From IMG/VR virus record IMGVR_UViG_3300025018_000391, positions 1-31,491 of that record: 31,491 nucleotides of DNA; one strand, written 5' to 3'. The stretch comes from a virus. Lineage: Duplodnaviria > Caudoviricetes. Under the pieces are notes generated by a model, which ran no database searches, was not told the DNA's origin, and worked only from the letters and a program-made list of their open reading frames with translations. This document shows positions 25,129 to 28,814 of this stretch, piece by piece (the first letter of the stretch is position 1; each line of letters opens with the position of its first letter). A program made the position numbers and the translations under genes.

Positions 25129-25348
25129 ATTGTTTTAATTCTTCCTTCAAATCATTGGCTTTTTGGATTATTTTGTTGCGCTTTTCCACATCCTCGGTTC
25201 CTTTGTAGTCCATGCGTAAAAAGACTAATTGCTCGTTTATTTTGTGAATTTTTCGGGCTTTGTACTTCTCGTAAATAATAGGGGCTTTCTCTTTAAGCTC
25301 TGCAAGGAGGTTTGAGCGGTTGTTGAGTGAAAATAGGGTGTCTGTCAT
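25115..25348 (-). CDS. Hypothetical helical protein
   Basis: 77 aa, overlapping the methyltransferase stop. Confidence 0.6.
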   Translation of the reverse strand: MTDTLFSLNNRSNLLAELKEKAPIIYEKYKARKIHKINEQLVFLRMDYKGTEDVEKRNKIIQKANDLKEELKQFDMT

Positions 25349-27099
25349 AGTCTTTTCATAATTTCATAAACTACATTAACTGTTACCGCATTTCCCATCA
25401 TCTTGTACCGTTGAGTATCCGAGAAATCGTAAGTCCAACCAACAGAAGTTTTAATTCCTATCGTAAAGGTATTTTGATTTTGTATTTCTTTTGGAATGTA
25501 TCCATTTATGGCACGGATTACAAACGAGGATAAGATTGTTAATTTTTGTTCTAAATTCTTTATGTCTAAAAGGTTTGATGTGGTGGACTTCAAAAGTTCT
25601 TTGAGTATGATTAAATCGTTCCCTACATCTTCTACAGGTAGCATTATCTCTTTTCCAAATAACCTTACGAGCTTCTTTCCATTCGGTTGAACTATCAAAC
25701 ATTCCTCTTTCTTTAGTGATTCCACCTCTCCAGAATTTATTATTTTCTCCAGAATTGAAATCATAATAACAGCGAGGTGAACAAAATCTTCTTTCTTTAT
25801 AAGCGGGTGAAACTTTTTTAATTCTTCCACAGAGTTTACATAACAAATTGATTTTCCTTGACTGACTATCTCCACTTTTGATTCCTCGCAATTTATAAGC
25901 ACATCTGGGAGAACAAGTTTGTCTGTTAGTTGATTTTTTATATTCAAATTGTTTTCCACAGATAATACAATTTCTTTTAATCCGCTTTTTTCTACACTCC
26001 CAACAGGTTTTAGCGACTTGTGATTTTGGTTTTCCACATTTACAAGGTTCTTTTGATTGTCTAAACATACCTTAATTATAACATATTTTTCTATTTCAGG
26101 AAATCCCTGTAACCGTTCACATTCAAGGGGTGTCAATCTCCGAATAGCCATTTCATTCACCATCACTCCATGTATATCTTGACCAGTCAGAGTAAATGCC
26201 GGCTCTCCATCTGTTTTGAATCTACGCCCATTCTGGCGCTTTTCTGGTCTGTCAGGCGTTAAGACGGGAATTGCTACTTTCGGTTGCCTTCTTCCTCCTT
26301 GCATGGTATTTAATGTCGGACTTATCCCTTCCTCACCGTACACCCTGTCGTTTGAGTGGGCGGGTTGATTGATTTGTTTAATTTCTTGTGCATTGAGTTT
26401 ACTTTCACCAATGTACGTTCCGACTGCTCCTGCTCCTCCGTATCTTGCGGTAAGGGTGTTTGTGATATGTCTCTGTAACTCATCAATCGCTTGACCATCT
26501 TCTCCGACAGGAAATACTTTTGATCTGGGGACTCCTCCAAGATATCCGATAACGAACACTCTTTCCCTATTCTGGGGGACACCAAAGTTTTTGCTGTTAA
26601 GTACCTGCCACTCAACGAAATACCCCAAGTCGGTGAGAACCCCAATGATTGTCTGGAAAGTTTGCCCCCCATCGTGAGATAGTAAACCTTTAACATTTTC
26701 AAGTAATATATTCCGTGGTTTTTTGTGAGAGAGAATCCGTGCGATGTCAAAAAAGAGTGTTCCTCTTGTGTCGTCAAATCCGTGTCTTTTTCCAGCAATA
26801 CTGAAAGACTGGCAAGGAAATCCTCCAACCAGGAGGTCAAAGTCGGGGAGTTGTCGTTCATCAATTTTAGTTGCGTCTCCATAGTTTTTTGTTTCGGGGA
26901 ATTTTGTTGATAATAATTGGTTTGCATATTTATCGATTTCGGAGAAACCAACACAAAGTGGACGTCCCATGTGTTGTGATGGCTTGCTCTTACTGTCGGT
27001 GCTATTTTTGGATTTAATTTTAAATTGTGATAAGTCATACGCTTGTTGTATTCCTAATTCAAAACCGCCCACACCTGTGAACATAGAAAAATATTTCAT
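25345..27099 (-). CDS. C5-cytosine DNA methyltransferase with a 218-codon in-frame insert between motifs IX and X
   Basis: Motif I FTGVGG, IV GGFPCQSFS, VI LLENVKGL, VIII PQNRERVF, IX RRLTPLECERLQGFP, X QRYKMMGNAV. Confidence 0.92.
   Translation of the reverse strand: MKYFSMFTGVGGFELGIQQAYDLSQFKIKSKNSTDSKSKPSQHMGRPLCVGFSEIDKYANQLLSTKFPETKNYGDATKIDERQLPDFDLLVGGFPCQSFSIAGKRHGFDDTRGTLFFDIARILSHKKPRNILLENVKGLLSHDGGQTFQTIIGVLTDLGYFVEWQVLNSKNFGVPQNRERVFVIGYLGGVPRSKVFPVGEDGQAIDELQRHITNTLTARYGGAGAVGTYIGESKLNAQEIKQINQPAHSNDRVYGEEGISPTLNTMQGGRRQPKVAIPVLTPDRPEKRQNGRRFKTDGEPAFTLTGQDIHGVMVNEMAIRRLTPLECERLQGFPEIEKYVIIKVCLDNQKNLVNVENQNHKSLKPVGSVEKSGLKEIVLSVENNLNIKNQLTDKLVLPDVLINCEESKVEIVSQGKSICYVNSVEELKKFHPLIKKEDFVHLAVIMISILEKIINSGEVESLKKEECLIVQPNGKKLVRLFGKEIMLPVEDVGNDLIILKELLKSTTSNLLDIKNLEQKLTILSSFVIRAINGYIPKEIQNQNTFTIGIKTSVGWTYDFSDTQRYKMMGNAVTVNVVYEIMKRL
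25441..26094 (-). mobile_element. Putative mobile HNH insertion within the methyltransferase
   Basis: Interrupts GFP(E/D)-GWT, normally contiguous in C5-MTases. Consists of a promoter, the HNH ORF and 10 nt of downstream sequence. Confidence 0.75.
25451..26068 (-). CDS. Zn-finger/NUMOD3-like HNH homing endonuclease, nested in the +2 frame of the methyltransferase
   Basis: Repeated CxxC...CSPRC units, GENNKFWRGG, RDNATCRRC, EVHHIKP...NLILVCNPCHKWIH. TGTTATAAT-taaggt-ATG promoter. Confidence 0.9.
   Translation of the reverse strand: MFRQSKEPCKCGKPKSQVAKTCWECRKKRIKRNCIICGKQFEYKKSTNRQTCSPRCAYKLRGIKSGDSQSRKINLLCKLCGRIKKVSPAYKERRFCSPRCYYDFNSGENNKFWRGGITKERGMFDSSTEWKEARKVIWKRDNATCRRCRERFNHTQRTFEVHHIKPFRHKEFRTKINNLILVCNPCHKWIHSKRNTKSKYLYDRN
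26322..27038 (-). CDS. Overprinted ORF in the +1 frame of the methyltransferase, resembling the M.EcoHK31I beta-type polypeptide
   Basis: 238 open codons; contains TSWLEDFLASLS and ECSLSDILEESPDQKYFLSEK. True start uncertain. Confidence 0.65.
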   Translation of the reverse strand: MTYHNLKLNPKIAPTVRASHHNTWDVHFVLVSPKSINMQTNYYQQNSPKQKTMETQLKLMNDNSPTLTSWLEDFLASLSVLLEKDTDLTTQEEHSFLTSHGFSLTKNHGIYYLKMLKVYYLTMGGKLSRQSLGFSPTWGISLSGRYLTAKTLVSPRIGKECSLSDILEESPDQKYFLSEKMVKRLMSYRDISQTPLPQDTEEQEQSERTLVKVNSMHKKLNKSINPPTQTTGCTVRKG

Positions 27100-27114: not shown

Positions 27115-27642
27115 TTATAAATCATCAGGAATAGAATCAGGATCAACATCTTCATTCATAGGGTGACCACCCCCCTGACCACTAGGTGACTCTATTACCA
27201 TTACCATTACCATTACCATGTCCTTTTTCCATTTGATGATAAAATCTTTTCCTTTATTAAAAGAAAGCATAGGTTTGAGCTTAAAATCGGCGAAAAAATG
27301 TTTTTTTATATCAATAGGAATAGCATCAAATTCTTTTTTTACTGATTGGGCTATGTGAATAGTTGGGGAAAAGGAATTATGTTTATAAAAGTTATTTACG
27401 TATATCCAATCTTTGAAGAAAAAATATTTTCGGTCGCTTTCAAATTTCTTTTTTATTTCTTGAAGTTTGGGCAAATCTATATTGGAGTAAGGCAAAATGT
27501 ATTTGTCGGGTAATTCATAAATACCGCATTTTGTTACGTAACTGTTGCTGAAAAGAAATAAGAATAAATTTCTCTCGTCATTGTCAAGATGTGATATGTA
27601 GCTGTCATTCCAGTAATTAGTGTTGAGGTATCTATGTTTCAT
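27115..27642 (-). CDS. Phage replication initiator/replisome organizer-like protein (N-terminal winged helix)
   Basis: RYLNTNYWNDSYI..LD..ERNLFLFLFSN....CGIYEL...WIYVNNFYKHN pattern. Confidence 0.7.
   Translation of the reverse strand: MKHRYLNTNYWNDSYISHLDNDERNLFLFLFSNSYVTKCGIYELPDKYILPYSNIDLPKLQEIKKKFESDRKYFFFKDWIYVNNFYKHNSFSPTIHIAQSVKKEFDAIPIDIKKHFFADFKLKPMLSFNKGKDFIIKWKKDMVMVMVMVIESPSGQGGGHPMNEDVDPDSIPDDL
27194..27217 (+). repeat. (ATTACC)x4 tandem repeat within the replication gene
   Basis: Seen directly; encodes MVMVMVMV on the minus strand. Confidence 0.9.
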
Positions 27643-28358: not shown

Positions 28359-28814
28359 TCACTCTTCCAGCTCCTCCTCGATCAACTGTAGTTCCTTCTG
28401 TAGGTCTTCTGATGTCAGACTCACTGTAGCGTTCAAGCTCTTGCGTTCGATCTTACTAGGTGCATTCAAGCCAATAATTTTAGCTAGTGAATTAGCGTAG
28501 TCTAGTATTAGCTTTCTGTCTAACTGTCCCTTCTCATCTTTTGCGTCCAGTCCTTCAATATATCTGCCTTCTATTTTTTTGTCGATTCCCTCTTCTCTGA
28601 TTCGTTCCAAAAAAGCCTGGCGAAAATTGATCTTATTAGTGTTTTGCCTTGCTAAATCTGCACCCGTTCCATTAGTGTTATATATTCGCTTGTGTATTTT
28701 TGCCATATCAAGCGGCGTATGTTTCTGGACATCACGTACGGCGAGTTCAATAACAGTAGCTTGCTTCGTTGAGAGCCCGTGGGGATTGGCTAGGCTAGGC
28801 TTAATCAGTGGCAT
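28359..28814 (-). CDS. Probable terminase small subunit
   Basis: GLSTKQ N-terminal HTH-like region, GADLARQN, EGLDAK...LAKIIGL..PSKIE and a C-terminal helix, as in TerS proteins. TGGTATAAT-N6-ATG. Confidence 0.65.
   Translation of the reverse strand: MPLIKPSLANPHGLSTKQATVIELAVRDVQKHTPLDMAKIHKRIYNTNGTGADLARQNTNKINFRQAFLERIREEGIDKKIEGRYIEGLDAKDEKGQLDRKLILDYANSLAKIIGLNAPSKIERKSLNATVSLTSEDLQKELQLIEEELEE

Follow-up and report, generated by a model that had tools for sequence, protein, structure and literature searches.

A C5 cytosine DNA methyltransferase (MTase) gene of a tailed phage carries, between its motifs IX and X, an insertion in which a Zn-finger/HNH endonuclease gene is nested in another reading frame. 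Our analysis suggests that the nested gene is likely a homing element, that the MTase is likely read straight through it and that the two ends of the insert are predicted to pair as a beta-stem, a combination that we hold to be probable. The stretch of DNA analysed (31,491 nucleotides; hereafter the window) is a tailed-phage genome fragment with terminase, P22-like portal and capsid genes, from a virus record with a completeness of 71%. The MTase gene is spanned without differences by one contig of sequencing run X1, which may be the source, and exact pieces of the locus are found in further sequencing runs; the nested locus is thus not an assembly artefact.

The MTase gene (25345..27099, minus strand; PF00145, E 1.6e-77) encodes an alpha chain of 584 residues and is open through the insert. 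All of the tested motifs are present on the minus strand: motif I (27081-27064), the PCQ of motif IV (26817-26809), the ENV of motif VI (26700-26692), motif VIII (26574-26560), motif IX (26142-26098) and motif X (25413-25384). Over residues 1-584, the predicted model can be superimposed on M.HhaI (Z 30.0, rmsd 2.2 Å, 232 aligned residues), and its motif X is accordingly docked against the core. Both the motifs and the HhaI fold identify the protein as a C5 DNA methyltransferase. Nearby, a short repeat of ACCATT units (window 27186-27230) lies in a replisome-organiser-like gene and reads MVMVMVMV.

The insertion element (654 bp; 25441..26094, minus strand) can be delimited by comparison with empty alleles, which read LQGFPD[G/K]WT at the site (for example, L024 and L027). 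Between motif IX and the GN of motif X, empty alleles have 25 residues and the window has 243, so the insert comprises 218 host-frame codons. Its borders in the host protein are E335 and G554, with an uncertainty of 1-3 codons; ahead of [W/Y]T, 82 of 87 invaded rows have G, whereas empty alleles have N, G or D. The insert has a GC content of 31%, versus 43% in the upstream part of the MTase, and consists of 26 nt, the Zn-finger/HNH open reading frame (ORF; 25451..26068, minus strand; 205 aa, frame +2 relative to the MTase; PF01844, E 2.2e-9) and a final 10 nt. The host frame has no stop within it, while the third frame is stopped at the first insert codon. An earlier sequence-only reading of the window had proposed an insert of this length and position, this layout, and a host frame open for 218 codons beside a third frame that stops immediately. 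The 218-residue excess over empty alleles bears out the first point, and the sequence itself confirms the other two. The uninserted MTase homologs that it had called for do exist, and are among the closest host relatives. It had also observed that NTA and NTG codons in the HNH ORF avoid positions where they would create host-frame stops, and six of six such codons (the start codon included) indeed precede a pyrimidine.

The element belongs to a large family. A search with the HNH protein returned 23 viral loci: 13 long matches, all of which are nested in C5 MTases, and 10 free-standing genes that match mainly the C-terminal half of the HNH protein. From a metagenome scan, the best 80 of 420 relatives were used, minus one that proved to be the contig of the window itself. 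Frequent host-frame stops in homologous inserts would, according to the sequence-only reading, have spoken against its proposal; over the length of the HNH match, such stops occur in none of the 92 nested loci (13 viral and 79 metagenomic), in a sample that, being the best 80 of 420 metagenome relatives, under-represents decayed copies. Both flanking motifs were recognised in 81 elements (window included), of which 67 were left after removal of copies with 95% identity or more. The family comprises at least 67 distinct elements, with HNH identities down to about 42-46%. A separate protein search added 25 other MTases with the same insert (host-frame identity 42-60%). Three genome-contig loci also have the same layout, two of them apparently being copies of loci already found. 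A Saccharibacteria assembly contains one relative of the element. Among annotated phage records, only distant HNH relatives were found (27 records, below 40% identity), and a scan of viral contigs with the host-frame insert alone confirmed 0 relatives among 25 pattern matches.

The family makes it possible to ask how often such an open frame would arise by chance. For the single gene in the window, the synonymous-codon shuffling suggested by the sequence-only reading gives a divided answer: permuting the gene's own codons leaves the host frame free of stops with P = 0.093, which is not significant, whereas P falls to 0.00075 (mean of 5.8 stops) when codons are resampled with phage usage and to 0.00015 when the third-base frequencies of the gene itself are used for resampling. 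The longest open run at the +1 offset in 23 other window genes is 92 codons. Across the 67 non-redundant elements (13,555 codons), about 394 host-frame stops are expected and none is seen. Ahead of a purine, NTA codons for Ile, Leu and Val are used in 0 of 748 cases, compared with 240 of 893 ahead of a pyrimidine; NTG is used before A in 0 of 415. Free-standing relatives, by contrast, use NTA ahead of a purine in 66 of 178 cases, and each of the nine tested contains 1-14 of these stops. Variants in insert length preserve both reading frames. One sub-lineage (L008, L057, L058, L061, L063, L065, L066 and L099; P0018-P0020, P0022 and P0024) lacks the first zinc finger and is about 28-32 codons shorter, with both frames intact. 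Host-frame stop avoidance is under selection, and the family-level codon test is decisive.

The insert also appears to bring its own promoter. An extended -10 promoter-like motif, TGTTATAAT (26075..26083, minus strand), lies 6 nt before the HNH ATG, and its bases also encode the Y-V-I-I of the 5' flank strand described below. Within the window, 11 of the 34 minus-strand starts that were listed by hand have TATAAT at a distance of 6-7 nt upstream, where about 0.2 would be expected, so the element appears to use the phage's own promoter style; the claim of the sequence-only reading that the insert holds a leaderless promoter agrees with this match to the phage's typical -10. A Shine-Dalgarno-like motif is present at two of the same 34 starts. 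TATAAT, often as TGnTATAAT, precedes the minus-strand starts at 28814, 22702, 20368, 16091, 15079, 14154, 10052, 6415, 5169 and 1856. From these motifs, the window phage appears to use many internal leaderless promoters, the virion region included, and the HNH protein is likely made from a leaderless transcript. A sigma-70 two-hexamer scan, which needs a -35 box, did not report the insert promoter. Of 67 elements in the family, 35 have a -10-like hexamer at a spacing of exactly 6 nt upstream of an in-frame ATG; several other element lineages are without the -10 motif, and some of them have a Shine-Dalgarno-like motif instead.

Of particular interest are the two ends of the insert. The 5' flank (host residues 336-345, IEKYVIIKVC; 26065..26094, minus strand) and the 3' flank (residues 544-553, TFTIGIKTSV; 25441..25470, minus strand), the latter overlapping the HNH stop, are both predicted beta-strands. 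AlphaFold2, run on a 141-sequence alignment (mean pLDDT 69.7), places 10-residue strands exactly at the insert ends, with block pLDDT of 92/68 for residues 336-345 and 76/93 for residues 544-553, and gives motif X a pLDDT of 93-97. In the alignment columns (88 partly redundant rows), a hydrophobic residue occupies positions 342, 547 and 549 in 99-100% of cases, and positions 343, 546 and 548 in 10-13%. Position 342 is hydrophobic in 32 of 32 rows from elements without the promoter motif. The alternating hydrophobic pattern that the sequence-only reading had seen in both flanks is therefore conserved as well as predicted to form strands, and it supports a putative pairing of the two strands as a beta-stem. 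Parts of the passenger between them are predicted to fold, with moderate confidence: a beta-meander (399-422) and two helices (436-460 and 513-534). An ESM Atlas search with the insert assigned no fold (scores up to 0.80, TM up to 0.34 by query).

The MTase gene in fact uses all three frames: for the alpha chain, for the HNH protein and for a homolog of the C5 methyltransferase beta subunit. The last is an ORF of up to 238 aa in frame +1 (26322..27038, minus strand; phrog_16143, E 3e-26) that matches the annotated beta subunit of Streptococcus phage MM1 (49% over 116 aa, E 2e-29) and whose true start probably lies further in. It is outside the insert, is also found in empty alleles and had been overlooked by the sequence-only reading. 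A beta chain in another frame within the alpha gene is likewise a feature of phage MM1 and of M.EcoHK31I, where it is overprinted inside the alpha gene (PMC2836561, available in part). As that source describes it, the M.EcoHK31I beta chain carries motif IX, whereas motif IX of the window is in the alpha frame. In methyltransferases of the FDGIS type, for example L010, the L.DILE...KY.LS segment of the beta ORF is part of the main frame.

Removal of the insert before the enzyme acts, whether by an RNA that splices itself in an unrecognised way, by a protein domain with a novel splicing or autoproteolytic activity or by ribosome bypassing, would be compatible with a passenger that is partly predicted to fold and with the Cys conserved at host position 345 (71 of 85 rows), although this conservation is accounted for by overlap with the HNH ATG. 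The signatures of such removal were looked for at both levels. At the RNA level, the insert has no Rfam match at E 1, its fold is no better than that of shuffled sequences (z +0.98), and no catalytic intron core was found, the 26 and 10 nt being all that lies outside the HNH ORF. At the protein level, there is no Pfam or NCBIfam match to a Hint domain, and intein termini were not found: the insert begins with I and ends with V before G, where C or S at the start and (H)N at the end before C, S or T are required. The claim that neither an intron nor an intein is involved thus holds in these searches. Moreover, RNA splicing or bypassing would make an open host frame unneeded, so the absence of stops, against the roughly 394 expected, speaks against both, and we regard removal of the insert as very unlikely. 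Still less probable is that the MTase is dispensable or dead and that the open frame is a by-product of the low Ile/Leu/Val content of the HNH protein. The window's HNH protein has only 24 such residues; the permutation of its own codons is not significant; among the free-standing relatives, L021 has just one off-frame stop; and for two hosts (L013 and L048), no catalytic half was found in the upstream sequence checked (up to 1.5 kb). Against it stand the avoidance that is specific to the codon context and the frames that are open in 92 of 92 loci. Motif X and the catalytic motifs are also conserved around the insert: each catalytic motif is found in 42 of 51 untruncated host ORFs, and the nine exceptions include four with the catalytic half in a separate upstream ORF, two near contig ends and one apparently interrupted at PC by an intein-like insert. 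In L097:129-3251, the host MTase carries both this element and an intein-like interruption at the catalytic PC motif. Two database matches of the HNH protein, to IscB (NCBIfam, 37 bits versus a cutoff of 175) and to a maturase in the PDB, reflect the common HNH domain only and were set aside.

The distribution of the element bears on whether it is mobile or whether it entered the MTase once, long ago, and has since been inherited with it as a functional pair, for instance as a phage restriction-modification-like or competitor-cutting unit, its patchiness then being due to replacement by empty alleles. HNH and host identities correlate (Spearman 0.63), as such a domesticated pair would predict, and two host clades tested on the HNH tree are not rejected (AU p 0.31 and 0.53). 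At depth, the HNH phylogeny tracks that of the hosts without significant discordance, and homing over a long range is therefore not shown. The HNH residues H162, H163, N178 and H187, invariant in 67 of 67 non-redundant elements, likewise agree with a domesticated pair. On the other hand, only four of 119 close MTase homologs have this element, the others being empty or having different inserts, and the 21 host cores nearest to the window's are all empty alleles (up to 88% identical), a result biased by the retrieval of empty alleles with the window's own variable region. On a host tree of 41 invaded cores and 54 of 108 empty ones (quick trees were used), the grouping of invaded alleles in one clade is rejected (AU p 5.9e-6), empty alleles are interspersed among invaded ones, and the distribution is disjunct, with 18 changes versus 31 when shuffled, three of them forced by starred branches. 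Further, in pairs with more than 65% HNH identity, four-fold sites of the HNH gene that are free of stop avoidance are unsaturated (0.64 versus 0.40 expected), whereas adjacent MTase four-fold sites in the same pairs are saturated (0.31 versus 0.33 expected). An element younger than its hosts would be expected to show such less diverged HNH synonymous sites, and the excess can be explained by recent spread, by selection acting on the peptide in the host frame, or by the two together. Unrelated hidden HNH genes at other sites of the same MTase family also look like repeated invasion. On balance, we consider a domesticated module unlikely and a homing element the better reading, the putative capacity of the HNH protein to cut empty alleles being suggested by the distribution of the element. 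A clean empty allele of this phage was not found in contigs of eight DNA runs; a joint in run X5 that skips 701 nt was set aside because of low support, 85% likeness and a side of 26 nt.

Several of the related MTases contain nuclease arrangements that differ from that of the window. A different hidden HNH gene (L026:2750-3193, plus strand; also in P0031), of 147 codons in frame +1 with the host frame open, lies just after WT, in the same IX-X loop but a few codons beyond the site of this element. Two hidden nucleases per MTase occur in L006, L037, L084, L106 and probably P0120, the second ORF being in frame +2 upstream of motif IX with the host frame open; in L006 (1543-2226, plus strand), it is an HNH_3 ORF after motif VIII. 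In L004:1515-3769 and L040:811-3230, a nuclease-like insert of about 185-190 aa near motif VIII seems to have reorganised the enzyme, whose catalytic part continues into the beta-subunit frame while its TRD-IX-X part is a separate ORF, in which this element is still open.

The design itself is already known. The ShiLan domain is a hidden, out-of-frame HNH gene in a mycobacteriophage DNA methylase (ShiLan gp65, Pacc40 gp60; PMC11855218), and is also treated in PMC9957025, a source available in part. The 2025 ShiLan paper proposes read-through, a looped-out insert and leaderless HNH translation, from about 10 phages and without a selection test (PMC11855218). The read-through 'third route' that the sequence-only reading had implied to be new was thus already proposed. 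The window shares with ShiLan an insert of about 200 codons, an open host frame, a lack of intron or intein signatures, a patchy distribution, and a Zn-finger/HNH ORF in a third frame that starts 18-26 nt in and ends at the 3' edge of the insert (PMC11855218). All four ShiLan-type features (insertion in a methylase, an open host frame, a complete and confined HNH ORF, and a disjunct distribution) are found here. Membership of the same sequence family fails, however, on HNH homology, host class and site: the ShiLan host is an N6/N4 methylase (PF01555) with a PF13392 HNH, whereas the window has a C5 MTase (PF00145) with a PF01844 HNH; a pairwise alignment of the two HNH proteins is not significant (E 0.30); and the IX-X loop is not the ShiLan site. 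Given these differences, the sequences place the window element in a separate, widespread lineage at a different site. A stop-avoidance test, an internal -10 promoter and conserved flank strands are absent from the ShiLan paper (PMC11855218). No paper on the C5 IX-X version was found in a search that covered few subscription journals and in which the only relevant papers were those of the Gogarten lab, and the ShiLan external repository may list C5 examples.

Other known systems share parts of this design. Aeh1 mobE in nrdA and T4 mobA in gene 60 are free-standing homing endonucleases that, like the window's HNH gene, lie inside a coding region without an intron or intein; as that source presents them in the part available, their hosts are split into separate coding regions, whereas the window host is one open frame (PMC2988022). 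Inteins with out-of-frame or antisense endonucleases also have an endonuclease overprinted on an open host frame, but carry splicing domains, of which none is detected in the window insert (bioRxiv 10.1101/2025.01.02.630785, available in part).

Taken as a homing element that is read through, the insert suggests the following mechanism. A separate leaderless transcript, beginning at the HNH ATG or close to it, would yield the HNH protein, which would nick or cut empty alleles near the motif IX coding sequence during co-infection, after which repair would copy the insert into the empty allele. Neither the RNA nor the protein would be spliced. Instead, the two insert ends would pair as a beta-stem by which motif IX is held next to motif X while the 200-residue passenger is extruded, and the full-length 584-aa enzyme would remain active, probably in an alpha/beta heterodimer whose beta chain comes from the frame +1 ORF. 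More speculatively, the element may be a splicing-free 'structural intein', in which the end strands are a selected beta-stem adaptor suited to any C5 MTase, one strand doubles as a promoter, and the passenger is a new, overprinted folded domain under long-standing amino-acid selection; we put this forward tentatively, as a possibility that we think somewhat improbable.

The family provides population-level evidence that selection keeps the host frame open, and this points to read-through as a genuine third way for homing endonucleases to exist within genes. The beta-stem, together with an internal -10 promoter that doubles as coding sequence, offers a testable mechanism, and the passenger may illustrate how a protein can arise de novo in nature by overprinting. 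Gene callers that allow one frame miss such HNH genes, and the host-frame products enter databases as methyltransferase 'domains'.
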